From the NCBI GenBank assembly GCA_045643185.1, contig JAZUKH010000279.1:3301-67300 (forward strand): a DNA stretch of 64,000 bases, written 5' to 3'. The position numbers and the translations under genes were made by a program. Source of the DNA: Myxococcota bacterium. Lineage in GTDB: Bacteria > Myxococcota_A > Bradymonadia > UBA4248. Positions within the stretch are counted from its first letter, which is position 1, and each line of letters opens with the position of its first letter. Below are positions 12,817-61,794 of the stretch, piece after piece. A model generated the notes under the pieces. The model did no database searches, had not been told where the DNA came from, and worked only from the letters and a program-made list of their open reading frames with translations.

Positions 12817-13167
12817 TTAACGCGGCCAGCAGGCGTAGTCCACTGCACAATACTCATATCTTGTATCGCAGTTGTAATCGCCCGTGCAATACGGACGGCA
12901 GTTACCGTCAGAAGCACAGATCTCAGAGGTCGTGCAGCTGGAGCCATCGACGCAACCACCATAGCAAAGACCATCGGCAGCGCAGTATTCATTCCAACCG
13001 CAATCCGTGTGATAGTGGCAACGTGAATAACAGTGGTGATCTACCGCACAGTACTCATCATAACCACATTCGTAGTCATAATCACAACCATCTTCAACGA
13101 TGATGCAACCATTCAGACCAAATGCGGCAAAACAAAGCGTCAAAAGGGATAATGCGATTTTCTTCAT
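12817..13167 (-). CDS. Small secreted cysteine-rich protein (116 aa, about 22 Cys)
   Basis: Signal peptide MKKIALSLLTLCFAAFGLNG. Repeated CxxDxxC/YxYC spacing (DYDYECGYDEYCAVDHHCYSRCHYHTDCGWNEYCAADGLCYGGC…). Divergent from the large Cys-rich lipoprotein gene at 13456. Confidence 0.55.
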   Translation of the reverse strand: MKKIALSLLTLCFAAFGLNGCIIVEDGCDYDYECGYDEYCAVDHHCYSRCHYHTDCGWNEYCAADGLCYGGCVDGSSCTTSEICASDGNCRPYCTGDYNCDTRYEYCAVDYACWPR

Positions 13168-13455: not shown

Positions 13456-16422
13456 ATGAAACAAAAGCTCATTTTTTTTGCGGGCATGATGTCAGCTTTG
13501 CTGATGTCAGCCTGCGACGACGATTCTATCAAACTCAACGCGACTTTGGCGGGTGAAGGTGAAGACTGTACCTTAAATGATTGCGAAGACGGTCTCACCT
13601 GCGATGAAGAAAGCCAGGTCTGTGTGAAGTCAGAGGAGATTCCTCCGTCTGATTTGTGTGCCAACAAAAAATGCGACACCAACCAGGTCTGCAAGAACGG
13701 CAAATGTGTCGCCAAAGACAAAGAGAACGGCGGCGAATGCGGTGGCAAAACGTGTGCGGAAGACGAGATCTGCAACAATGCCACGTGCATCAACGAAGAT
13801 CGAGTCTGCCCCGACACCATCTGCGCCGAAGACGAGATCTGCTACAAAGATAAAGAATGCCTCAAACGCGGTAACTGCGACGGCCATGCCTGTAATGAAG
13901 GCCAACTCTGTTTGAACGGCATCTGCCACGATCCCGGCGATTGCGGTGGACTCACCTGTAACTCAAACGAAGTCTGTGAAAAGAATGTCTGTCGACAGTA
14001 CGGAACTTGTGGCGGTTTCAAGTGTTTTTCAGACGAAGTCTGTAACTTCGACGAATGTCTGCCCCAAGGCCCGTGCGGCGGCGCGCTTTGCAAGGACACC
14101 CAGTTCTGTGCCAACGGCCACTGCCAAAACAAAGAGCTCTGTAACGACATCTATTGCGCCCCTGGCCAAGTCTGTGTCGATGGCGTCTGCGCCAACGGCC
14201 CCCAATGTGTCATCGATGAAAAGTTTCTGACGCGTTGTGGCGATAACTGTTGTACGGAAAAAGAATTCTGCGGCGACCGAAGCCATTGCTGCTCCTACGA
14301 AAATGCCTGCGGACAGGATTGCTGCCAGGACGGCGAACAATGCGTCAACGAAATGTGCCACAGAATCTGCGAACATGACCGCTGTGAACAACTTGACGGG
14401 TCTGAAATCTGCTGCGACGCCGGCGAGATTTGCGTTTCTAACCAGTGTTTCAAACCGCAGACGTCATGCATCGACTCGTATATGTGCGATAACAGCGAAT
14501 ATTGCGACACCGCCACGAACACCTGTCTGCCCAAGCCCCAAACGGAAGCCTGCATGGCCACTCCGAAAGGCGGCGCCGTCATTCCGACACAGCTTTGGTA
14601 TTGGGGAAGCGGAAACCTCGCTCCAAGCGCGTCGGAATTCCCCAATCACCGTGACGTCATGTCTTCACCAATGGTCGCCGACGTGGACGGGGATGGTGAC
14701 GCAGAAGTCATCTTCAACTCCTTCAACGGCAGCTGGAATGGTAACGGCATTCTTCGCATCCTCGATGGCAAAACAGGAAAAATGAAGGCCTTCAGTAACG
14801 GCAATCCATACACGGATGGCGGAAGCCAAACCGCCGTTGGCGACATCATCCCCAGTAATCCGGGACTCGAAATCGTCACAAGCACTGCAGTCACGATCAA
14901 TGGTGCCACCTATTATAAACTCGCCGTGTTTGACAATAAGGCAAAACTCATTTGGCAGCATACAGAAGGCGAGTACCACGAATGTGGACAGGGCGGCCCG
15001 GGGATCGCTGACTTTAATGGCGACGGATTACCAGAAGTTTATAGCCGATACAACGTCTTTAACGGACAAACCGGGGAACTCATCGCCAGAGAAAGCTGTG
15101 CCACGTGCGGTGAAAACAACGTACAACACGCCTATAACGAATACCCCGTCGCGGCGGATATCAACGAAGATGGCACGCTCGAACTCGTCGGCGGCAATGT
15201 CGCCTACAAAGTCATATTCCCTGACAAAGAACATAACGTCGCCGGAAAGCTCGAGCCCATTTACTTCAGAGATGATCTCTCGGATGGCTACCCGGCGATC
15301 GGTGACCTTGACAACGATGGGCATCCTGAAGTCGTGATCGTTCAACCGAATGGCAACAGTTCACTCATGGCGATTCATGGCAAAGACGGCTCCAATTTCT
15401 GGGACAAACCGATTGATACCTCCAGCATTGGCCTCGGCGGACCTGCTACGATCGCCAACCTTGACAATACGCCGGAACCCGAGATCACATTTGCGGGTAA
15501 ATACAAATACATGGCATACAACGCCAAAGGCGAGCTCTTGTGGTCACGCTTCACCCACGACCAGACCTCTGGCAAAACAGGCTCCTCCGTTTTCGATTTC
15601 GACGGCGATGGCAGAGCCGACGTTGTCTATGCTGACGAGTATTTCCTCCGCGTTTACGACGGCCAAACAGGCAACACCAAGTTCTGTAAATGCAACACGT
15701 CAGGTACTCACTGGGAATACCCCGTTATCGCTGACGTCAATAACGATGACCACGCTGAGATCGTCGTGGCAGGCAACACCACATGCAACATGACAAGCTG
15801 TCCAACTTCACTGTCCGTGAACGACGGATGGGACGAATGCGTTGACAGCATCATGAAATCCCCCAACGCAGCTGACCGAGCAGGCATCCGCGGCGTTCGT
15901 GTCTTCTCGAGCCCCGACCGCGACTGGGTCAATACGCGCAAAATTTATAACCAACACGCCTATAGCATCACCAACGTTTCTGATGATGGAACCATCCCAA
16001 GACACCCCAAAAAGAACTGGGAGATCGACAACCTCAACAACTTTCGTCTTAACGTTCAGCCGGGCGCAAACTACCTGCCCGACCTGTCGATCAAAAACGT
16101 TTCGTCGAGTATGACCTGCTCTGATAACCTCCCGCTCTACTTCACCGTCCAAAACGTCGGTTGGGCAACCGCTCTGCCCGGCATTCAGATAAATATCTTC
16201 TCAAGCGCGAGTGCAAACGGTTCCTACGAGAAGCTCGGTTCTATCTCGACCACACGTATGCTGCGCGCAAGCGAAAGCGAAGACCTCGCCTTCACCATCA
16301 AACAAGAACAAATCAAGTCTAATCCGCTCTACCTCGAACTCACCTTTGATGAGACTGCACCCACAGAATGCCGAAACGACAACAATACGGCATTCTACGC
16401 GCTGACCTGCGCCATTTACTAA
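13456..16422 (+). CDS. Large lipoprotein: tandem 4-Cys (Myxococcales-type Cys-rich) repeats, 7-blade FG-GAP/VCBS-like beta-propeller and a C-terminal Ig/CARDB-like domain; integrin-alpha-like adhesin
   Basis: RBS aggag before the ATG. Lipobox LLMSAC. At least 8 tandem ~23-aa modules of the form CxxxxCxxx(E/Q)xCxNGxCxxxxx (for example CANKKCDTNQVCKNGKC, CGGKTCAEDEICNNATC). These are followed by Ca-binding DxDxDG loops (DVDGDGDAEV, DFNGDGLPEV, DINEDGTLELV, DLDNDGHPEVV, DFDGDGRADVVYAD, DVNNDDHAEIVVAG). Paralog of 35080..38103. Confidence 0.7.
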   Translation: MKQKLIFFAGMMSALLMSACDDDSIKLNATLAGEGEDCTLNDCEDGLTCDEESQVCVKSEEIPPSDLCANKKCDTNQVCKNGKCVAKDKENGGECGGKTCAEDEICNNATCINEDRVCPDTICAEDEICYKDKECLKRGNCDGHACNEGQLCLNGICHDPGDCGGLTCNSNEVCEKNVCRQYGTCGGFKCFSDEVCNFDECLPQGPCGGALCKDTQFCANGHCQNKELCNDIYCAPGQVCVDGVCANGPQCVIDEKFLTRCGDNCCTEKEFCGDRSHCCSYENACGQDCCQDGEQCVNEMCHRICEHDRCEQLDGSEICCDAGEICVSNQCFKPQTSCIDSYMCDNSEYCDTATNTCLPKPQTEACMATPKGGAVIPTQLWYWGSGNLAPSASEFPNHRDVMSSPMVADVDGDGDAEVIFNSFNGSWNGNGILRILDGKTGKMKAFSNGNPYTDGGSQTAVGDIIPSNPGLEIVTSTAVTINGATYYKLAVFDNKAKLIWQHTEGEYHECGQGGPGIADFNGDGLPEVYSRYNVFNGQTGELIARESCATCGENNVQHAYNEYPVAADINEDGTLELVGGNVAYKVIFPDKEHNVAGKLEPIYFRDDLSDGYPAIGDLDNDGHPEVVIVQPNGNSSLMAIHGKDGSNFWDKPIDTSSIGLGGPATIANLDNTPEPEITFAGKYKYMAYNAKGELLWSRFTHDQTSGKTGSSVFDFDGDGRADVVYADEYFLRVYDGQTGNTKFCKCNTSGTHWEYPVIADVNNDDHAEIVVAGNTTCNMTSCPTSLSVNDGWDECVDSIMKSPNAADRAGIRGVRVFSSPDRDWVNTRKIYNQHAYSITNVSDDGTIPRHPKKNWEIDNLNNFRLNVQPGANYLPDLSIKNVSSSMTCSDNLPLYFTVQNVGWATALPGIQINIFSSASANGSYEKLGSISTTRMLRASESEDLAFTIKQEQIKSNPLYLELTFDETAPTECRNDNNTAFYALTCAIY

Positions 16423-16539: not shown

Positions 16540-17766
16540 ATGGTTGCAGCGAAGCATTTGGAAGAACACGATCCCGCATCGGATTTCAAAACCGGTCACA
16601 TTTTTGGTGATCGTTTCAGAGTAGAAAAACTCATTGCCGCAGGCGGCATGGGCTTTGTTTATATGGCTACCGATCTTGAACAACAACAGCCGGTCGCCCT
16701 CAAGATCATGAGAACCTCGCTCCAGCGCGACCCCGTCGCCATTGAGCGTTTTAAACGCGAAGTCCGCACCATTCGCAGACTGATGCACCCCAACACCATC
16801 GAATTGATCGACTACGGTGTCACCGAAGAAGGCTTCATGTTCCTCGTCATGGAATGGCTTCATGGCAAGGATCTGCGTGAGATCATGCGCATCAAGCGCC
16901 GTCTTTCAGCCATCACGGCGACCCGCGTCGCGCTTCAGGTTGCCTGGAGCCTTTCTGAAGCTCACATGAAAGGCATCATTCACCGCGATCTCAAGCCCGA
17001 AAACATCTTTATCATGCACAACCCCGGCCCGCATCTTCGCATCAAAGTCGTGGATTTCGGCCTCGCCAAGGTCGTGAGCGGCCCCGAAAGCGGTGAACAG
17101 ATCACCCGCGGTGGCGTCGTCTGCGGCACCCCGGAATACATGAGCCCCGAACAGGCAAAAGGTGAAAAACTCGACGGCCGAAGCGACGTTTACGCACTCG
17201 GCTGCGTGATGTACGCCATGCTCGAAGGCGACGCGCCTTTCCGTGGCAAAAAAGCCCTCGACGTCGCCATGATGCACATCAATCAACCCTTCCCACAGAT
17301 GAGCGAAAGCATTCCCGCCCAGCTGCGCGGCATCATCATGAAATGCGTCGAAAAGAAAGCCTCGGCACGCTACCAGAACGTCAACGAACTCGCCGCTGCG
17401 CTCGAAGCCTTCCTCGATCCCATTGAATGCCGTAAACGCGAAACCACCGACGTCTGGAACATCCGTCGCTCCACGCCACCCAGCGAAGCCGATCCCCGCA
17501 CGGCAGCCATCGCCGAAGCCGTCGTCGAAAGCCAGCCCACCAACATGGCCATCCGACCCACACAAAATACGCCTTCTGGCGAAGTCCGCGTCGTCAAACG
17601 CGCCCGTTCAAGCCAGTCCTCACACTACCCAAGAAAACCGCTCAACAGCCAGTGCGTAAGACTCAAAACTGCGCCTTCGCTCGTCTCGCATTCCAAAGCC
17701 TTCAAAGTCGAGCAGGTCGTCAAAAAAGAGAGCTTCTTCAAACGCTGCCTCGATAAAATTCTTTAG
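16540..17766 (+). CDS. Serine/threonine protein kinase (Hanks-type)
   Basis: Kinase subdomains GxGxxG-like (GGMGFVY), VALK, HRDLKPEN, DFGLAK and GTPEYMSPE. RBS gaggtg. Confidence 0.85.
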   Translation: MVAAKHLEEHDPASDFKTGHIFGDRFRVEKLIAAGGMGFVYMATDLEQQQPVALKIMRTSLQRDPVAIERFKREVRTIRRLMHPNTIELIDYGVTEEGFMFLVMEWLHGKDLREIMRIKRRLSAITATRVALQVAWSLSEAHMKGIIHRDLKPENIFIMHNPGPHLRIKVVDFGLAKVVSGPESGEQITRGGVVCGTPEYMSPEQAKGEKLDGRSDVYALGCVMYAMLEGDAPFRGKKALDVAMMHINQPFPQMSESIPAQLRGIIMKCVEKKASARYQNVNELAAALEAFLDPIECRKRETTDVWNIRRSTPPSEADPRTAAIAEAVVESQPTNMAIRPTQNTPSGEVRVVKRARSSQSSHYPRKPLNSQCVRLKTAPSLVSHSKAFKVEQVVKKESFFKRCLDKIL

Positions 17767-25531: not shown

Positions 25532-28525
25532 TTGAAATATCAGGTATCGGAGAAAGCGCCCCGCGCGTGGCTTCAATTTGAGGCGATTTGGATAGCGGTC
25601 ATTCTGCTTTTATGTTTAGCAGGCCTGGCAGTCAGCTACATCGTGCCCAAAATTAACTTCGACACAGCTGTTGTCGGCACCAATGTCGTCGTCAAACGCG
25701 CGCCTGAAGACGAAGTCATACACCAAGGCGACATCATCGAAGCCATTGACGGTCAAACGATCTCGACCCGTGCTGAACTCTACTACCAACTGGCGCGCCA
25801 TCCCGAACAAGTCGAAGCGACCATCAAACGCAACGGCGCACGTTTCGTCCGTCCCGTCACGGCTGCATCCCTTGCCAATGACACGCTCCCTGTCGGTCTC
25901 ACCCCCGAAGATCGTCCCATTGCCATTAGTTTCGGCGGCGACTACTCTACACTTGAAGGCTATGAGATCAGTCAGCTTCATAACCTGCTCATCGAAAACC
26001 GGGCGGAAAATGCTTCCGTCGTCTTTAGGCGCCCCACCGAACAGACCAATGTCCTGCTTAACTTTAAGCCCGCAATCGGACGAACACTGATCCTTTCGGC
26101 AACGTTGCTCCTCATCATCGTCATGGGCTTTGTCGCACTCAGAATGCGACAAAACGTCATGAAAGGCGTCTATATCAATACGGTGCTTGGTTTGACCGTA
26201 TTGGCTGCCATGTGGACGATTTTGGGCGCAACCTTGCTTTGTATGCCCATTCTCTTCCTATTTGGCATGATCGCCATGGGAATGCTCAAGTCCTTTGACC
26301 TGAATTACCACATCTGGGATACAAACAAGCTTCAAAAACCCAATCTTTGCCTCAGAACGGTTCTGTATCTGATTCCCGCTGTTTGTCTGTTGGCACCGAT
26401 CGTCATGTGTTTGAAAGAACTCCCCATGATATGGGGTGGTTCGAACGATGCCCTGAGCGAGATCAGACTCGATGCGCTCTCCATTATTCCGGTTTTATTG
26501 GTCATTGGCATGACCATGATCGATGCCGGTCGCAGCGCCTATCGCGCTTACAGCGGGCGCCGTTTACAGCCCCGTGACTTTGCACTGTTTATCGCATTTG
26601 TCCTCGCACTCACTAGTTTAGTCATTATGTGGAGTGACTTTGCGACGGCACGTATTATTCTGGTCGCGACGCTGATCGCACAGGCCACGGGTGACGCTAT
26701 GGAATGCTTTACCAAGCGTGCACTCCAAAAAGATGTCTCTTACGATGACGATATTTTCGCGGCGGATCCCATTCGTGAAGCGCTCGAAGAAGCTGAAACG
26801 ATCTTGAATCACGCGTGGGTCGTACAAGCCATCATTGATCGCCCAGAACCTCGTCACGTCGTGGCCATCGCCGCGTCGGATGACACAGACGAGGACGTCA
26901 ACGGACTCGCCTTACACGTGCTGTCAAATACGTGGCGCGATTTTCTCGATATTTACCGCGTCGAAGGCATGATCGAAGGGGGGGATTCTCCCGCCTGCGA
27001 CATCGCGAATCGACTCGGTATCGTCTTCGCCCAACCCATTGCAGAAAAAGTCGGCGGTTCGCTGACCAGCATCACGCTCTTGGTCAGCACAAGAGAAATG
27101 CCCGACGCCAACGCGCCACAAAACGCATCGCCCAGCGTTTCACAGCGCGCTGCTCTGTCAAAAATTGCTGAAAAACTCGCTGAAAACGCACTCGCACTCG
27201 TCTATCACTCCACCGAGATGAGCCTTGAATACATCGGCGATGACCTTGACGAAATCGCAAATCGCATTCACAACACGGCTTCTTTCCCGCGTGCTTTGCA
27301 CAATCCAACGATCCCACTCCTCGCTACGGAGATCCCACACGGCCTGCTCGAAGAAGATGACGTCCAACAAGCTGACGATGATGTCGTCGAGATACAAGAT
27401 CCAGAACAAAATATAGACGACTACAGCACTAAAGTCTTTCAGGAAGAAGTCAACCTGCTGCGCAGTCAGGTCCACACTTTGTGTAGTCAACAGATCCGTG
27501 CCTTTGCCCTCGCGGAGATCGAGTTCACCGAAGATCAAAAAGCAGCCCTTGAAGACCTCAGATCCCTCGAAACCCCAATCGTGTTGATCGGTGAAAGAGG
27601 CGTCGGCAAAACAATTTTGACGCTTTCGGCCCATCAGGAACGATGCGAAGGACCGTTCTTGCAGATCGACGCAGGTGAGATTCCTGAAACGATCCTGGCG
27701 CTCGACATGTTTGGCGATTCTGAACATCCCGGCCTGATCAAAAGCGCTGTCGGCGGCTCGTTGCTCATCAAAAACGTCGACAAACTCTCAACACCGATCA
27801 TCAGTGACATCATGGAAGCCATCGACGCGGTTGCCGCTGAAGGCACCATCGATCTTTACATGACGATCGCAATTCGGGATGACGAAGTGATCACCTCCAA
27901 GTTTGACCGCCACCCCAACCTATTGCCAGAACGCTGTCGTGAAATCATCGATCACTGCGACGCAGAAACCGTGTTCCTCAAACCACTTCGTGAACAGGAA
28001 GACATCCTGGATGCGGCGATGTTCTTCATGCAGCGCCAGTCCATGCGAAGCGACAAGAACATCATGAGCATCGAAACGAATGCCCAGGCTGCTTTAAGCA
28101 CCTATCGTTGGCCGGGCAACTTCTCGGAACTTCGTTCAGTGATCGAACGCGCCGTCATGCGTGCAGAAGGCGACGCCTTGACTGTTCACGACCTCGGCGC
28201 CGATTTTGCCTCGCTCATCAACGCCGACACCAAAAATACCTCGCTCGACCAAATCTATTACGAACAGATCGAGCAATTACAAACATTAAATGAAAAACAA
28301 CTTGCACAGATCGATCGACTGAATGAGCGCATCAAAACGCTCGAATCCTCGCAGGATACCCCCCAAGATGACTTCACAGTCGGCACGTTCGACGAGATCG
28401 AAAAAGCTATGCTCGTGCGTATCCTTAACCGATACCACAATGATCCCGAAGTCGCCGTCGAAGCCCTCGCTACGAACAAAACCAAATTCTTTAATAAATT
28501 AAGAAAATACGGCCTTTATTCTTAG
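25532..28525 (+). CDS. Membrane-anchored regulator: N-terminal TM, PDZ domain, polytopic TM region, degenerate sigma-54-interaction (AAA+) domain, C-terminal Fis-type HTH
   Basis: TTG start with RBS aggga. IWIAVILLLCLAGLAV (TM). PDZ-like DEVIHQGDIIEAIDGQTISTRAELYYQLA. About 6 TM helices at residues 190-380. PIVLIGERGVGKT (Walker A, GESGTGK-like). LLIKNVDKL (Walker B-like). No GAFTGA. WPGNFSELRSVIERAV (WPGNxREL). C-terminal LVRILNRYHNDPEVAVEALATNKTKFFNKLRKYGL (HTH). Confidence 0.65.
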   Translation: MKYQVSEKAPRAWLQFEAIWIAVILLLCLAGLAVSYIVPKINFDTAVVGTNVVVKRAPEDEVIHQGDIIEAIDGQTISTRAELYYQLARHPEQVEATIKRNGARFVRPVTAASLANDTLPVGLTPEDRPIAISFGGDYSTLEGYEISQLHNLLIENRAENASVVFRRPTEQTNVLLNFKPAIGRTLILSATLLLIIVMGFVALRMRQNVMKGVYINTVLGLTVLAAMWTILGATLLCMPILFLFGMIAMGMLKSFDLNYHIWDTNKLQKPNLCLRTVLYLIPAVCLLAPIVMCLKELPMIWGGSNDALSEIRLDALSIIPVLLVIGMTMIDAGRSAYRAYSGRRLQPRDFALFIAFVLALTSLVIMWSDFATARIILVATLIAQATGDAMECFTKRALQKDVSYDDDIFAADPIREALEEAETILNHAWVVQAIIDRPEPRHVVAIAASDDTDEDVNGLALHVLSNTWRDFLDIYRVEGMIEGGDSPACDIANRLGIVFAQPIAEKVGGSLTSITLLVSTREMPDANAPQNASPSVSQRAALSKIAEKLAENALALVYHSTEMSLEYIGDDLDEIANRIHNTASFPRALHNPTIPLLATEIPHGLLEEDDVQQADDDVVEIQDPEQNIDDYSTKVFQEEVNLLRSQVHTLCSQQIRAFALAEIEFTEDQKAALEDLRSLETPIVLIGERGVGKTILTLSAHQERCEGPFLQIDAGEIPETILALDMFGDSEHPGLIKSAVGGSLLIKNVDKLSTPIISDIMEAIDAVAAEGTIDLYMTIAIRDDEVITSKFDRHPNLLPERCREIIDHCDAETVFLKPLREQEDILDAAMFFMQRQSMRSDKNIMSIETNAQAALSTYRWPGNFSELRSVIERAVMRAEGDALTVHDLGADFASLINADTKNTSLDQIYYEQIEQLQTLNEKQLAQIDRLNERIKTLESSQDTPQDDFTVGTFDEIEKAMLVRILNRYHNDPEVAVEALATNKTKFFNKLRKYGLYS

Positions 28526-29220: not shown

Positions 29221-30798
29221 TTATGATTTCACGAACCGTTTTATCTCACACGTATGTTCTTTTGTTTTTTCATCATAATTCACGCCGACGAATAACAGAT
29301 CCCCCTGGTAGTGTTCGAGGGCTTTGAAATAGTTATTATTTTCGATTTGGCTCAAAGCGGTTTCAGTCGAGCTGTTGCGCTTCAGTTCGACGATCATCGC
29401 CGGCGTATTGGGAATATACGGAATGAATGCAATATCGGCGTAGCCCTTGCCCGCAGGTAACTCAGAAATTACGGTATAGCGCGTATTTGCATAAAAATAG
29501 GCAAATCGAATCACGCTCTGAAAACACCCTTCGTTGTTGTATTGTAAATTCGATACAAGTTCGGTGTGCGCGTCGTCGATAGCCTTAGCCACGGCGTTTT
29601 CATCCCCCTGAATCGTGAGATCTAATAAATCTTCAGAATGTTTTACAATGGCAAAAGCCTTGGCATAATCCGCTTCATCCCGAATGGACAAAATCCATTG
29701 CTGCCGAATTTCTCTATTTGGAATATAACAACACTCCGTTTTGCGATCATAAGCCAGATAGCCCAAATGAATGAGATATGTAAAGACGTCGTCTTTGTGG
29801 CGAAAATCGGTCATCGTATTCAAATACCCCGACGTATCAACTTTGACTTTACCGCCGGCGATCATGTTCATGACGTCGTCCCGAATGCCATCAAAATTCA
29901 TCAGGATATATTGTTTAAGGGCATCATAAGACCCGGTCTGCGTCCAATACCCTCCATATTCGCGATCATTCATCGCTTGAACGACGGAATTTGGATTATA
30001 TATATGGTATTCACCCATGTGATAACCTTCATACCAGCGACGGCATTCATCGACATCCATATCACAGGCATCACACAATGCTTCCGTTTCTTCCTGGGTA
30101 AATCCAACGAACTCGGTCAACTGCCTAGAATTGACCATTGTATATTCACGAAATATATTGAGTTTAGACTGGTTCTTGTCGCGCACGATCGGCAAAATTC
30201 CTGTCAAATAGACGAGCGCAAACGCAGGTGATAAGTTTGCATTTTTAAACATCGCATTGAGAAAAGCCAGATACGAATTAAATATTGTCGCATTCACCTT
30301 TTCGCGCACTAAAACATCGTATTCGTCAAGAATCAAAACGAATTGTTCACCAGTTTTCGAATATATTCGTTGAATACATTTATCCAGGTTGTCTGTATCT
30401 TTGATTCCACAATTTGGATACTGTTCCTGAAGCTCTTCTCTTACATTAGCAGTGAACAATGGCACAATATCTTCATTACGCGTTGAGCTTGAATAGCACG
30501 CGTTGACATCGATGTGAATGACATTGAACTGATTGAGATACGTCTCAAAATCGGGGGTTTTCGCGATCTTAAGCTTTTCAAAAATGGGACGTGAATTCGC
30601 GAGTTTGCTATAATAGGCAGCGATCATAGCACCAGCCATTGACTTACCAAAACGGCGCGCACGCGACACGCACACAAAGCGTTCTTCGGTATTCAACAGC
30701 TGATTGAGTTCATGAATCAACATCGATTTATCGACATAAATTCTCGAACGAACGCCCATTCTCAACAACGCTTCACTAGGATTGACAAACAGTCCCAT
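29221..30798 (-). CDS. AAA-ATPase_like (PF09820-type) protein with C-terminal PD-(D/E)XK nuclease-family domain (PDDEXK_9-like)
   Basis: MGLFVNPSEALLRMG…YVDKSMLIHEL…FVCVSRARRFGKSM (signature SRPRRFGKS motif of the family). Length about 525 aa. C-terminal …GYADIAFIPY…ELK fits a PD-(D/E)XK core (D…E.K). RBS gagggag 7 nt upstream of the ATG at 30798; the 30885 start in the ORF track is an extension. Confidence 0.7.
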   Translation of the reverse strand: MGLFVNPSEALLRMGVRSRIYVDKSMLIHELNQLLNTEERFVCVSRARRFGKSMAGAMIAAYYSKLANSRPIFEKLKIAKTPDFETYLNQFNVIHIDVNACYSSSTRNEDIVPLFTANVREELQEQYPNCGIKDTDNLDKCIQRIYSKTGEQFVLILDEYDVLVREKVNATIFNSYLAFLNAMFKNANLSPAFALVYLTGILPIVRDKNQSKLNIFREYTMVNSRQLTEFVGFTQEETEALCDACDMDVDECRRWYEGYHMGEYHIYNPNSVVQAMNDREYGGYWTQTGSYDALKQYILMNFDGIRDDVMNMIAGGKVKVDTSGYLNTMTDFRHKDDVFTYLIHLGYLAYDRKTECCYIPNREIRQQWILSIRDEADYAKAFAIVKHSEDLLDLTIQGDENAVAKAIDDAHTELVSNLQYNNEGCFQSVIRFAYFYANTRYTVISELPAGKGYADIAFIPYIPNTPAMIVELKRNSSTETALSQIENNNYFKALEHYQGDLLFVGVNYDEKTKEHTCEIKRFVKS

Positions 30799-30948
30799 GT
30801 TCACTCCCTCAGGCATTTCGCACAACCAACCGTCGAAGCTTGTCGCAACACGGTTATGCTTCATTCTAGCATAAAATATGGCCAATGGCGATTGATCACA
30901 GAAATCGTTGCGGCAACAATAAGTTACAACTCAGTTACAGAAGCATAG

Positions 30949-34988: not shown

Positions 34989-35008
34989 TTCTATCCGCTA
35001 AAATCTCT

Positions 35009-35037
35009 GCGGCTGTTTTTACAGCCGCATTTTTTGT
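35009..35037 (+). terminator. Rho-independent terminator
   Basis: gcggctgtttttacagccgc followed by attttttg. Confidence 0.6.
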
Positions 35038-35079
35038 TTTTACGGACGTGATCTTTATATATTTCAAGGAGACATGCTC

Positions 35080-38000
35080 ATGAAACGCTCTCTTTTGACT
35101 GTTTTCGCTTTATCTGTCGTGTTGTGTGCCTGTTCCGAAGAAACGCTGTCCAATCTTAATAGCTCGGACGAGCCTTCTCAAGAAGATCCCAATAACGACA
35201 ACCCAAAAACGGATGACCCCAAAACGGATGAGCCCGAAACACCGGCCAAATCAGATGGCTCACTAGGCAGCATCTGTCATGACAAAGTCCGTTGCTTGGA
35301 CGATCTTTCGTGTATGCAGGGATTTTGCAGGCGCTATGTCGACCTTGGAGATGCCTGCGACGAGTTTAATCTCTGCGACGAATCTGAATGCGTGAAATCA
35401 GAAGGTTCGGCGCAAGGCAAATGCGTTCGAGAATCTTCGCTCCACCACACATGTAATGACACGACCATCGTCTGCCCTGCCCCCTTACAATGTATCGCCC
35501 TTTCAGCGAACATACACCGTTGTGAAGACGCCGTTGGCTTGGGCGAAGCCTGTCAGGATGGCTTCACTTATTGTGAAAACGGCCTCCTTTGCCACCCTCA
35601 GACCAACCGCTGCGCCACACGCGCCACGATCGGTGAAACGTGCGACGACACACACACCTGTGAAATGCCTTATTCATGCGTCAAAGGCGTCTGTGCCACA
35701 CGCGTCAACGAAAACTGTGACGCCTCGCACGTATGTATCAGCAACACCGCAGTCTGTTATGACGGCAAATGCATCGAATCGAATGAATGCGCCAGCGAAT
35801 CCGACTGTTCAGCAGATACGTACTGCTGCACCGAGGACGCCTGTAAAGTCAAAAATGTGTGCCTGCCCTATGGCGAAGGTCCGCGTGAAACCACGAACGA
35901 CGCTTGTGAATATGAGACCGTACCCGGCCTTTTTGAAGCAGACATCCAGTGTGAATGGGCTAAACCCGCAAAAGATGACCCATTTCCCAAGCAGGACAGC
36001 ATCGTCACCCCGACCTTTGTCGCCAAAACGCCGCATAACACGGCCTCTGGCAACACGCTGATCGTTGCGACCTACCAACATGGCATTTGGGAGCCTTGTG
36101 ACGAAGCTTACCAGTTTGGCGTGATCCGCTTCATCGATCCTGAAGACTGCCACGTCATAGAAAACTTATACGACAAGAAAAACTACGTTTCTGCCGGCGC
36201 CACCATGGCCATAGCAGACGTCGACGGCGACGGTTTTGTAGAAATCTTCGCTCAACGCTCTCCCCACCAGGCTAGCAACGGCACAACAGCCGGCGGCATC
36301 GTCGCCTTCGGCTGGGACAAAGAACAGAACAAGTATGTGACCAGGTGGAGTCAGATCAACGGCTTAAAACAAAAAAACTATGGTTGGGGCGGTTTGTCCG
36401 TACACGACCTCAATGGCGACAATATTCCCGAAGTGATCAATCCGTATGGCGAAGTGCTGAATGCACAGACAGGCGAAAAACTGAATGGTACTCAAGTCAT
36501 TGATAATGCCATGTTTGCCACGATCGGCGACCTCGACAACGACGGCAAAGCCGAATTCATTGCCCGTTCTGGTAAAGTCTATGAATGGACGATCACTCGC
36601 GACGAGGCCGGTGCCATTACCAGCCAAACCTGGGTGCTCGAATACGACACGACCACGACGGGGTATCCGCTCAAAGCCTATGCTGACTTCGGCACGCCGG
36701 GTGCCACACCTGAAGAATTCGACTGGAACACCAAGGATGGCATCGCCGAAATCGTGTCGACGCGAGGTATAGACGCCGGTAAAGGCGCCTCACAGGTCGC
36801 CATGCACGCGCTCACTCAAACCGTCAACGAGGACGGCACCATCAAGAAAGGGCAACAACGTATTCTCTACATTGACAAGCTTTACGGCGGCGGTGCCCCC
36901 ACCATCGGTGACTTTGATAATGACGGTATGCCCGAAGTTGGTATCGCTTTTGGCGACTACTATGCCGTCATCGACCCGCGTTGCAAGAAAGACAAAGACG
37001 GAAATCTCCCAGAGGGGTGTTCCGCTGAGAATTATCTCTGGCGTCAAAAGAACCAGGACGATTCCTCATACACGACCGGTTCATCCGTCTTCGACTTCGA
37101 TGCAGACGGCCAGATCGAAGTCGTCTACGCCGACGAATGTTATACCCGCATTTACGACGGCAAAACAGGCGATGTACTCTTCTCATCCAAGCAAAGCAGC
37201 CGAACCGCATACGAAATGCCGATCATTGCCGATATTGACAACGATGACTCAGCTGAGATCCTGATGGGGGCCAACCTTCCGGAACGTTCATGTTCCGAAC
37301 TCGATGCGATCCATCGTGGCATTCGTTGCCACGAAGATGCCGACTGCAAATCAAACGTTTGTGAAAATAACTTCTGCCGTTGTGAAAGCGATGCACAGTG
37401 CAACTGGCGCAAAAACGAAAACGACGTCGTTATATCTGAATACAAATGTACGACACCGCTGGCTTCAGACAAAGAGGTTAACAGCAAAAACGTTTGTCGA
37501 GCTTACCGTAAAATCGGCAATCCGCCGACGGGACTTAGAGTCATGCGCGACCGTTACGACCGTTGGGCTTCCTCACGTAACATCTGGAACCAATTTGCCT
37601 ACTCGATTACCAACGTCAACAACGATCTTTCGATTCCGACGCTGACCGACTGGGTCCAGAACTTCCTGTCACCGTCCTTCAACAACTTCCGTGCAAATTC
37701 ACAAGGCCGTCTCGGTCGCAACGTTGCTCCGGACATCACCGGCAAGCTCAACAAAGACAACCTGTGCAAACGCACCAGCAGCCAAGACGCGAAAAATGCC
37801 ATCACGTTAACAGGTGTCGTGTGTAACCGTGGTACAAAGAGCGTCGCCACGGCTATGCCTGCATCATTCTACGAAGTGCTAGAAGACGGCAGCAACGGTC
37901 GCAAGTTCTGCACAGCCCATACAGCCAGTAACGTCCCCGTCGGCGGTTGTCTTGAAGTTTCCTGTACGCTTGACGACATTGTCCCAGGTACATTAGTGCG

Positions 38001-38103
38001 TATGGTCTCGAACGACGACGGTGAAGGTGGACGCACCACGGTTGAATGCAACAGCGACAACAACACCGACGAAATCATTCTCGAAAGCTGCCCAGTTTAC
38101 TAG
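35080..38103 (+). CDS. Large lipoprotein paralog: Cys-rich repeats, FG-GAP-like beta-propeller with an inserted Cys-rich segment, and a C-terminal Ig/CARDB-like domain
   Basis: Lipobox LSVVLCAC. Cys-rich N-terminal half (CHDKVRCLDDLSCMQGFC, CDEFNLCDESECV…). Ca-loop blades DVDGDGFVEIF, DLNGDNIPEV, DLDNDGKAEFIA, DFDNDGMPEVGIA, DFDADGQIEVVYAD, DIDNDDSAEILMG. Insert CHEDADCKSNVCENNFCRCESDAQC. Same overall architecture as 13456..16422. Best RBS precedes the ATG at 35080; the ORF track lists 35074. Confidence 0.7.
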   Translation: MKRSLLTVFALSVVLCACSEETLSNLNSSDEPSQEDPNNDNPKTDDPKTDEPETPAKSDGSLGSICHDKVRCLDDLSCMQGFCRRYVDLGDACDEFNLCDESECVKSEGSAQGKCVRESSLHHTCNDTTIVCPAPLQCIALSANIHRCEDAVGLGEACQDGFTYCENGLLCHPQTNRCATRATIGETCDDTHTCEMPYSCVKGVCATRVNENCDASHVCISNTAVCYDGKCIESNECASESDCSADTYCCTEDACKVKNVCLPYGEGPRETTNDACEYETVPGLFEADIQCEWAKPAKDDPFPKQDSIVTPTFVAKTPHNTASGNTLIVATYQHGIWEPCDEAYQFGVIRFIDPEDCHVIENLYDKKNYVSAGATMAIADVDGDGFVEIFAQRSPHQASNGTTAGGIVAFGWDKEQNKYVTRWSQINGLKQKNYGWGGLSVHDLNGDNIPEVINPYGEVLNAQTGEKLNGTQVIDNAMFATIGDLDNDGKAEFIARSGKVYEWTITRDEAGAITSQTWVLEYDTTTTGYPLKAYADFGTPGATPEEFDWNTKDGIAEIVSTRGIDAGKGASQVAMHALTQTVNEDGTIKKGQQRILYIDKLYGGGAPTIGDFDNDGMPEVGIAFGDYYAVIDPRCKKDKDGNLPEGCSAENYLWRQKNQDDSSYTTGSSVFDFDADGQIEVVYADECYTRIYDGKTGDVLFSSKQSSRTAYEMPIIADIDNDDSAEILMGANLPERSCSELDAIHRGIRCHEDADCKSNVCENNFCRCESDAQCNWRKNENDVVISEYKCTTPLASDKEVNSKNVCRAYRKIGNPPTGLRVMRDRYDRWASSRNIWNQFAYSITNVNNDLSIPTLTDWVQNFLSPSFNNFRANSQGRLGRNVAPDITGKLNKDNLCKRTSSQDAKNAITLTGVVCNRGTKSVATAMPASFYEVLEDGSNGRKFCTAHTASNVPVGGCLEVSCTLDDIVPGTLVRMVSNDDGEGGRTTVECNSDNNTDEIILESCPVY

Positions 38104-38115
38104 TTTCATGTCATC

Positions 38116-38157
38116 ATGCGTCTAGCATAAAGCCGTGCGACTTTATGCTGGACGCAT
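38116..38157. repeat. Long imperfect hairpin ATGCGTCTAGCATAAAG-ccgtgcgac-CTTTATGCTgGACGCAT
   Basis: 17-bp arms with 1 mismatch, 12 nt after the stop of the 35080 gene, with no T-tract. Shares ATGCGTC/GACGCAT ends with the hairpin at 17881..17899. Confidence 0.5.
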
Positions 38158-61705: not shown

Positions 61706-61722
61706 TCCTTTCAAACAAAAAA

Positions 61723-61745
61723 GGCGCCAAATGGCGCCTTTTTTT
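61723..61745. terminator. Bidirectional rho-independent terminator between convergent genes
   Basis: ggcgccaaatggcgcc flanked by A-run and T-run. Confidence 0.65.
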
Positions 61746-61794
61746 GTTGTTTCGACGTAACAGCTCAGCCGAGACTTTTGGCATCCGCTCTGAA

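Follow-up and report, generated by a model that had tools for sequence, protein, structure and literature searches.

The window analysed here is a stretch of 64,000 nucleotides from a Myxococcota bacterium (assembly GCA_045643185.1, contig JAZUKH010000279.1, positions 3,301 to 67,300 of the forward strand), and the gene under study, p1 (open reading frame [ORF] 35074..38103, + strand), encodes a large Cys-rich FG-GAP/VCBS propeller lipoprotein. The head of p1 is homologous to the beta-propeller of the Vibrio cholerae matrix adhesin Bap1 and its relative RbmC. What is new here is this clear head homology together with, as far as the alignments tell, a partial retention of the loops that bind sugar in Bap1. 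The structural description of p1 as a stalked propeller with a predicted lipid anchor can be given with high confidence; its most likely role, by analogy with Bap1 and at about even odds, is that of a stalk-displayed glycan-binding adhesin or lectin. The family to which p1 belongs is large, uncharacterised and found in myxobacteria-like bacteria, and within it p1 is nothing unusual. It shares the window with a paralog, p2 (13456..16422, + strand; 988 aa), which has the same layout, a longer stalk and 71 Cys in the whole protein.

Homology of the p1 head to Bap1

The family was represented by two alignments, A1 with the relatives of p1 (76 sequences) and A3 with those of p2 (38 sequences). The PDB entry that the A1 profile matches best is Bap1 (6mlt_A), at E=2.8e-47; the match runs in four colinear stretches through the propeller and the C-terminal extension, and the next entry, CRTAC1, follows at 2e-10. 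Bap1 was also the sole PDB match of each protein in single-sequence searches (1.8e-11 for p1 and 6e-27 for p2). With the AlphaFold2 (AF2) models as Foldseek queries, 6mlt came first for p1 at 2.4e-18, followed by integrin alpha chains, and first for p2 at 2.8e-23 (template modelling [TM] score 0.62, root-mean-square deviation 5.8 Å), where the next match stood at 1e-11; for the two models the runners-up were 7-12 orders of magnitude weaker than 6mlt. Overall identity to Bap1 is 15-18%, and p2 is closer to Bap1 than p1 is.

The Bap1/RbmC propeller has eight blades, is closed by a Velcro strand and binds the exopolysaccharide VPS directly (PMC10102183), and in Bap1 a beta-prism lectin is inserted in blade 6 (PMC8295476). 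p1 shares with it the eight-bladed FG-GAP/VCBS propeller, a probable Velcro closure and the same C-terminal WNQxAY...NxFR extension, and the family invariants W831, W838-N839-Q840, Y843, N870 and R873 are common to Bap1. In both proteins a domain is inserted into a propeller blade, blade 6 in Bap1 and blade 8 in p1. Bap1 and RbmC are soluble and secreted (PMC8295476), whereas p1 is a predicted lipoprotein with a Cys-rich stalk, carries a Cys-rich knob in blade 8 and a CARDB-like tail, and lies outside any vps/rbm-like gene cluster. No counterpart of the beta-prism (Bap1 residues 275-459) was found in p1, where blade 6 has a short Cys637-Cys649 loop instead. A full-text search returned no literature linking Bap1/RbmC to myxobacterial proteins, and the Bap1/RbmC surveys in the searched literature are restricted to the genus Vibrio.

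In Bap1, a VPS tetrasaccharide lies near the pseudo-8-fold axis and is contacted by W164, W202, W243, W599, N550, S551, K553, G596 and T597, and a Mg2+ site is formed by N550, S551, G596 and T597 (bioRxiv 10.64898/2026.08.03.742583). For the comparison with p1 and p2, Y88, R118 and Y119 were added to these contacts, and the crystal numbering was shifted to that of the paper by +21 before the deleted 57-aa loop and by +78 after it, upon which all cited residues match their letters. Residues of p1 are numbered in the 1009-aa frame that starts at 35074. Two loops of p1 line up with the binding loops of Bap1. Loop D662-S670 (QDDSSYTTGS; 37057..37083, + strand, as are all features of p1 below), which is nearly invariant in the family, aligns with the VPS- and Mg-binding loop N550-K553, with Bap1 N550-S551-G-K553 facing S664-S665-Y-T in p1 and T-S-G-K in p2. 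Loop S709-P716 (SRTAYEMP; 37198..37221) aligns with Bap1 G596-T597-L598-W599, which holds VPS and Mg2+ contacts; here SSGTLWEYP of Bap1 is matched by SSRTAYEMP in p1 (S709, T711, Y713) and by TSGTHWEYP in p2. Across the family, D662, S664, S665, T668, G669, S670, S709, T711, E714 and P716 are near-invariant, and p2 retains S551, K553, G596, T597 and W599 of the Bap1 pocket. This partial retention supports a protein that may work like Bap1, and not membership of the Bap1/RbmC group.

Domain architecture and the Cys-rich knob

The layout of p1 was derived from the AF2 strand pattern, the Cys spacing and the metal motifs. From the N-terminus it comprises a lipobox, an acidic linker, six 4-Cys modules, a 6-Cys neck, an eight-bladed propeller, a post-propeller segment and a CARDB-like immunoglobulin (Ig) domain. 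The AF2 model, built from A1, has a predicted local distance difference test score (pLDDT) of 88.1 and a predicted TM score (pTM) of 0.79, with disorder confined to residues 1-59; the model of p2 (pLDDT 85.5) has the same eight-blade plan and a longer stalk. The signal peptide and lipobox, MLMKRSLLTVFALSVVLCAC, occupy 35074..35133 (aa 1-20), with Cys20 as the predicted lipidated residue, followed by S-E-E. The lipobox reads ...LSVVLCAC/SEE, with an atypical Cys at position -2. At Cys20, A1 shows conservation in at least 90% of its 76 family members, and a recognisable lipobox is present in 79 of 114 family sequences. Most N-termini in A1 and A3 continue after the lipidated Cys with S or G and then D/E-D/E (consensus C-S-D-D), p1 reading C-S-E-E and p2 C-D-D-D. 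In Bacteroidota, acidic residues after the lipidated Cys are a surface-export signal, and by analogy the S/G-D-D that follows the lipidated Cys may be a sorting signal in this family.

Between the predicted anchor and the head lie a disordered acidic, Pro-rich tether (35134..35259, aa 21-62; pLDDT <50 for residues 1-59, column conservation 0.06) and a stalk of six ~28-aa 4-Cys beta-hairpin modules (35260..35778, aa 63-235), the latter being the most variable part of the family. The p1 stalk is weakly EB-like (Pfam EB, E=9e-4, sub-threshold), and stalk modules of relatives are recognised by Pfam as DUF7107, EB or Dickkopf_N, with DUF7107/EB reaching 9e-11 in one of them (P0017). Stalk length ranges from 45 to 507 aa within A1, and since it varies while the head is unchanged, the stalk behaves as a spacer. 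In two relatives, P0180 (1537 aa) and P0188 (2438 aa), the stalk has grown to 1000-2000 aa of CNGxDDDCDGxxDE repeats, and the same neck, propeller, knob and tail are retained, an extreme case of length variation in the spacer. The stalk of p1 leads into a conserved 6-Cys neck (35779..35871, aa 236-266), with C233, C239, C245 and C263 invariant. In total, p1 holds 55 Cys in the whole protein and 53 in the mature chain. Conservation in the family peaks in blade 7, blade 8 and the post-propeller segment (majority-residue frequency 0.63-0.77) and in the two loops that align with the Bap1 binding loops, against 0.18 in the stalk; the stalk and blades 1-5 are highly variable across the family.

The propeller spans 35938..37563 (aa 289-830). 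Its eight blades were counted from AF2 strands and motifs, and strand 289-295 is the probable Velcro strand, as judged from strand order. Pfam FG-GAP_3 matches p1 in 4 stretches at 62.9 bits against a cut-off of 26.9, and FG-GAP at 28.2 bits against 22.1; p1 belongs to the FG-GAP/VCBS beta-propeller superfamily. Six DxDxDGxxE loops start at aa 382, 445, 486, 613, 674 and 720 (DVDGDGFVE, DLNGDNIPE, DLDNDGKAE, DFDNDGMPE, DFDADGQIE and DIDNDDSAE), each lying between predicted strands A and B as an A-B loop and offering a candidate metal site. A DxDxDG motif in the A-B loop defines the integrin-type and VCBS propellers (PMC8023676). Behind the propeller come a segment common to the Bap1 C-terminus (37564..37728, aa 831-885), with W831, R835, W838-N839-Q840, Y843, P855, N870 and R873 conserved, and an Ig-like beta-sandwich of 7-8 AF2 strands (37729..38100, aa 886-1009). 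The first-pass annotation of this locus had called the tail CARDB-like, a label backed by sub-threshold and family-level matches: the p2 C-terminus matches CARDB (PF07705) at E=3e-4 and 21.3 bits, just under the cut-off of 22.7, one relative (P0052) does so at 1.6e-6 and 28.7 bits, and the family profile matches two small domains of solved structure, PDB entries 2kut (5e-4) and 3idu (8e-3), which we take to be CARDB-type structural-genomics targets. For p1 itself the label has no Pfam counterpart, its C-terminus giving no match even at E<=10. NCBIfam holds no model for the family, the top score being 12.5 bits against a cut-off of 600.

The most distinctive element within the propeller is a Cys-rich knob of ~76-80 aa (37282..37521, aa 737-816) with nine invariant Cys, placed by the AF2 model between strand B (aa 728-733) and strand C (aa 820-826) of blade 8 and modelled mostly at pLDDT >90. 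The same annotation had reported an extra Cys-rich insertion between blades, citing a peptide, CHEDADCKSNVCENNFCRCESDAQC, that is encoded at 37327-37401, inside the knob. The insertion is real and does lie in the propeller, but it forms the B-C loop of a single blade and is not unique to p1, being kept in ~50 of the 76 aligned relatives and thus the norm for the p1 orthologue group. Loop length is graded across the family from Bap1, the shortest, to the p1 subfamily, the longest: the blade-8 B-C loop has ~4 residues in Bap1, 17-40 residues with 0-2 Cys in distant members (Enhygromyxa and others), 47 residues with 3 Cys in p2, and 82-139 residues with 9-12 Cys over the aa 729-822 window in p1 and relatives P0002-P0061 (~50 sequences). 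An alignment of 27 knobs shows the nine invariant Cys together with D744, G749 and R809, and yields the consensus DPIHRGLRC-x5-C-x4-C-x4-CRC-x5-C...C...VCRA. Blade 7 holds a lone, nearly invariant Cys, C689, and C740, the first Cys of the knob, is retained even in members without the rest of the knob, so the two would form a natural pair and are probably joined by a disulfide.

In a search of 1.84 billion representative proteins (clusters at 50% identity), the knob profile gave 157 matches at E<=1e-3, of which 63 reach E<=1e-10. Full-length matches always lie ~190 aa from the C-terminus of 750-2400-aa family proteins, and the knob never occurs as a separate domain among the matches in this set. 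A mobile or shuffled domain is thereby ruled out, given the constant position in one family and the absence of any Pfam match to the knob; with full-length matches only at the same place in the same family, the knob is a family-restricted elaboration. Derivation of the knob from a stalk repeat was also tested and rejected as unproven, the similarity falling short of significance: the best E value of a hidden Markov model of 54 knobs against all stalks was 0.03, with heavy compositional bias. The large profile search further gave weak multi-stretch matches of knob positions 11-35 to generic Cys repeats, to which the knob may be distantly linked.

Proposed mode of action and rival explanations

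In the mechanism that we infer, p1 would be secreted, lipid-anchored at Cys20 and heavily disulfide-bonded, and the disordered tether and the rigid Cys-rich stalk would hold the Ca2+-stabilised propeller head off the membrane. The head would bind a carbohydrate polymer in its central pocket, on the face of the D-A and B-C loops, as Bap1 does; the ligand could be an exopolysaccharide that the cell makes itself, or else a glycan belonging to another cell or to a host. The orientation follows from the strand order. The DxDxDG loops are A-B loops, so the D-A and B-C loops should form the opposite face, and the Bap1 VPS contacts 550-553 and 596-599 sit in D-A loops. The knob, as the B-C loop of blade 8, would come to lie on the same face as these VPS-binding D-A loops and next to the T711/Y713 loop, which is a topological deduction. 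We regard it as an elaboration, particular to the p1 subfamily, of a B-C loop bordering the putative sugar-binding site, where it would most likely reshape or extend the binding surface and set the p1 subfamily apart in specificity from the p2 subfamily, which lacks the knob. Different glycans would then be bound by the p1 type, with its knob, and by the p2 type, which has none and is more like Bap1; the CARDB-like Ig domain would serve as an accessory module.

Several observations weigh against this mode of action. Of the Bap1 pocket, p1 retains S551 (as S665) and T597 (as T711), with W599 replaced by Y713 and K553 by T667, and in a residue-by-residue reading Bap1 R118/Y119 align with G/S in p2. 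The VPS-binding pocket is not conserved in p1 or p2, most Bap1 contact residues not being kept, and since most contacts are changed, the ligand is, to judge from these alignments, certainly not VPS itself. The placement of the knob relative to the pocket is a deduction from strand topology, and exposure of p1 at the cell surface, as opposed to the periplasm, is presumed. No conserved neighbour pointing to an exopolysaccharide locus or another pathway was found in the compared loci: synteny is absent at the two orthologue loci with 59-63% identity (P0003 and P0004), where the neighbours are unrelated, and clustering of 708 flanking ORFs revealed no common neighbour across 80 Myxococcota loci. 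Finally, enzymes are also built on the same propeller fold, the PL11 lyases among them.

This last point leads to the explanation that p1 is a surface-anchored polysaccharide lyase or hydrolase, with an active site in the central Ca2+-lined cleft as in PL11 YesW/YesX, which we regard as quite unlikely. YesW and YesX (2Z8R, 2ZUY) resemble p1 in that their propeller has eight blades, belongs to the VCBS supercluster and carries Ca2+ sites (PMC8023676), and the family profile matches YesW (2z8r, 3e-8), the PL11 protein 4cag (3e-8) and YesX (2zuy, 3e-7). These matches, however, span one or two generic FG-GAP blades (profile ~280-415, about 100 residues) and are ~39 orders of magnitude weaker than the whole-propeller match to Bap1; the similarity lies in generic blades only, and the catalytic site is not evidenced in p1. 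Weak Pfam matches to RGL11_C and a lambda-carrageenase propeller in relatives (P0075, 1.2e-5; P0052, 3.4e-4) would suit an enzyme, but all RGL11_C matches are below the cut-off, with nil in p1 and 13.1 bits against 27 in p2. The many strictly conserved polar residues around blades 6-8 would suit it as well, although the invariant residues are largely common to Bap1. The closest relatives were found in metagenome-assembled genomes from the ruminant gut, a setting in which polysaccharides are commonly degraded, but no sugar-utilisation gene was found among the neighbours in the window, at the two orthologue loci or at the 80 Myxococcota loci.

A second explanation, which we consider unlikely, takes p1 for a cell-cell or cell-prey receptor with a protein ligand, integrin-like or TraA-like, in which the expanded paralogs would stand for different specificities. 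Integrin alpha-V and alpha-IIb are the next structural matches after Bap1 (E 1e-11 to 1e-8), and integrin alpha propellers, second in the p1 Foldseek list, share with p1 the FG-GAP repeats and the DxDxDG Ca2+ loops in A-B hairpins. They bind their ligand on the face opposite the Ca2+ loops, and some alpha chains have a domain inserted in a top-face loop. The likeness stands at a low TM score (about 0.2-0.35), however, and reflects the common fold, and integrin alpha differs in having seven blades, in pairing with a beta subunit as a heterodimer and in being eukaryotic. TraA, the outer-membrane-exchange receptor of Myxococcus, has a ligand-binding head on Cys-rich repeats, and its likeness to p1 lies in this concept of a head on Cys-rich tandem repeats at the myxobacterial surface; it differs in having a PA14-like head and a C-terminal MYXO-CTERM anchor, against a propeller head and an N-terminal lipid in p1. 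A receptor would also agree with the predatory habit of Bradymonadia, with the expansion of the family into tandem triplets and with the high variability of the stalk and of blades 1-5. The top-face loops of blades 6-8, by contrast, are the most conserved across Bradymonadia-like bacteria and Polyangia, which fits a conserved small ligand better than the recognition of polymorphic proteins.

It is very unlikely that p1 is instead a periplasm-facing lipoprotein with a structural or envelope role, for example one that binds peptidoglycan or another envelope polymer. Gram-negative lipoproteins face the periplasm by default, no surface-export tag of a recognised kind (MYXO-CTERM or the type IX secretion system C-terminal domain) was seen at the p1 C-terminus, and the gene occurs widely and on its own, as genes for housekeeping envelope factors do. 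Its copy number of one to several per genome is nevertheless unlike that of a housekeeping factor, the 1000-2000-aa stalks of P0180 and P0188 and the ~26 predicted disulfides are a poor fit for the periplasm, and Bap1, the closest characterised relative, belongs to the extracellular matrix. None of these explanations is favoured over the others by gene context.

Building on p1 as a glycan-binding adhesin, a wider proposal would carry the "double-sided tape" principle of Bap1 beyond Vibrio: Myxococcota, this Bradymonadia-like gut lineage included, would have a large, so far nameless family of lipid-anchored stalked propellers of the Bap1 type that tie the cell to exopolysaccharide or to a prey or host glycan, the knob would be a specificity-setting lid over the sugar pocket, and paralogs with and without it, maintained together in one genome, would see different glycans. 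We put this forward as a tentative idea that is possible and rather doubtful. Should p1 indeed be a glycan-binding adhesin, a family that so far bears only the annotations "VCBS repeat-containing" or "hypothetical" would gain a function open to testing, and Bap1-VPS, the only structurally understood interaction between a matrix adhesin and an exopolysaccharide, would be extended to a second phylum and another kind of anchoring. Paralogs with and without the knob would then be a natural experiment in how propeller-lectin specificity responds to the insertion of a disulfide module. For the window itself the meaning is modest: p1 is a normal family member, and its paralogy and hairpin are unremarkable.

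Paralogy, transcription unit and genomic surroundings

Pairwise alignment bore out the proposal that p1 is a paralog of p2, a second Cys-rich FG-GAP lipoprotein whose domains follow in the same order. BLASTP aligned the two proteins at E=3e-46 with 25% identity, colinear over ~950 aa, and hhalign of A1 against A3 gave a probability of 100% and E=1e-161 over 823 aligned columns, from the signal peptide to the C-terminus (last Cys). The resemblance is therefore one of shared domain order and not a chance likeness limited to DxDxDG loops. The Cys-rich part is divergent between them, as had been noted at first reading, the stalk being the most variable region of the family. p1 has ~50 full-length relatives at 37-63% identity and p2 has its own ~30 at 45-54%, both sets coming from the same kind of uncultured genomes. 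With an orthologue set of its own for each, p1 and p2 are, on this sequence evidence, old paralogs with separate orthologue groups and not the product of a recent duplication.

A tblastn search of the 64-kb window found no third copy, only p1 and p2. The first-pass annotation had considered two such paralogs in 64 kb notable, which proved overstated. Related metagenome-assembled genomes carry tandem triplets, three p2-type copies in one locus (L084:2784-13024) and three p1-type copies in L085 and L086:6800-16152, from a ruminant-gut genome, and several Myxococcota genomes have at least two family copies; two copies in 64 kb are thus the normal state of the family. In a single case, a p1-type triplet lies just downstream of genes resembling E/F/G of the type II secretion system and of a 981-aa metallophosphatase, beside a gene for a Ser/Thr kinase; p2, too, has a Ser/Thr kinase gene after it in the window (16540..17766). 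Divergent from p2 is a gene for a 116-aa lipoprotein with four short Cys-rich repeats and no Pfam match (12817..13167, - strand).

The ORF of p1 would encode 1009 aa from the ATG at 35074 and 1007 aa from that at 35080. A Shine-Dalgarno-like AAGGAGA (35066..35072) lies 1 nt before the former and 7 nt before the latter, a spacing that speaks for 35080 as the real start codon. A database protein of identical sequence, P0001 (1007 aa), also begins there, so the start chosen at first reading agrees with both. The upstream gene ends in a canonical intrinsic terminator (35008..35039, + strand; a 9-bp stem with 6 G-C pairs, then a T-run) and the gene downstream is convergent with p1, so p1 looks monocistronic, with a transcription unit of its own.

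A hairpin at 38116..38157 begins 12 nt past the p1 stop codon, with 20-nt arms (38116-38135 and 38138-38157) that are 90% complementary across a 2-nt gap and form a 16-17-bp stem as RNA. The description of a long hairpin in place of a canonical terminator holds: the stem is there, no U-tract or T-run follows it, and it is absent from the list of a scan for the intrinsic-terminator consensus. A second, nested hairpin with 15-nt outer arms (38220..38281) lies in the same convergent intergenic region, and the 201-nt intergenic stretch downstream of p1 folds with z=-5.8. Rfam gave only sub-threshold microRNA-like noise on these hairpins, and no copies of the hairpin arms were found elsewhere in the window, where they are not a repeated element. 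Behind a 63%-identical orthologue (L081) lie other long hairpins, their arms 19 nt and 14 nt in length and likewise without a U-tract, so the structure at 38116-38157 is probably the ordinary 3' structure of the lineage and not specific to p1. The most likely role of the hairpins downstream of p1 is to terminate the transcripts of the two convergent genes or to stabilise their 3' ends. Elsewhere in the window there are a very long hairpin with 27-nt arms that are 96% complementary (47417-47473) and a textbook bidirectional terminator (61712-61749; AAAAAAGGCGCCA / TGGCGCCTTTTTTT), which indicates that the genome uses both U-tract and U-less stem-loops.

A scan with one genome per species returned at least 455 relatives of p1, and among the best 80 almost all belong to Myxococcota. 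Carriers among these 80 include Nannocystis radixulma, Polyangium, Sandaracinus, Kofleriaceae, Haliangiales, Bradymonadales and Lujinxingia, and also a goat-omasum genome labelled "Proteobacteria bacterium". The closest proteins (<=63% identity) come from ruminant or gut metagenomes and from one "Bradymonadia bacterium", and the window probably stems from an uncultured, host-associated lineage close to Bradymonadia. Among the neighbours of p1, ten of which were analysed with Pfam, are a TPR-like acidic protein, a Cys-containing lipoprotein and a short Hsp70, and no exopolysaccharide (vps/rbm) cluster was found beside the gene. The lipoprotein convergent with p1 (38342..39475, - strand; 377 aa) has Cys clusters at both ends and no Pfam match, and it borders the same hairpin-rich intergenic region. 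Next to it, a 522-aa Hsp70 homologue (39492..41060, - strand) covers positions 1-512 of 599 in the HSP70 profile, the C-terminal lid apparently being missing. Two further genes in the window are unrelated to p1: 29221..30885 (- strand), for a predicted AAA-ATPase_like and PD-(D/E)XK protein, and 25532..28525 (+ strand), for a 997-aa protein with PDZ and sigma-54-activator domains.

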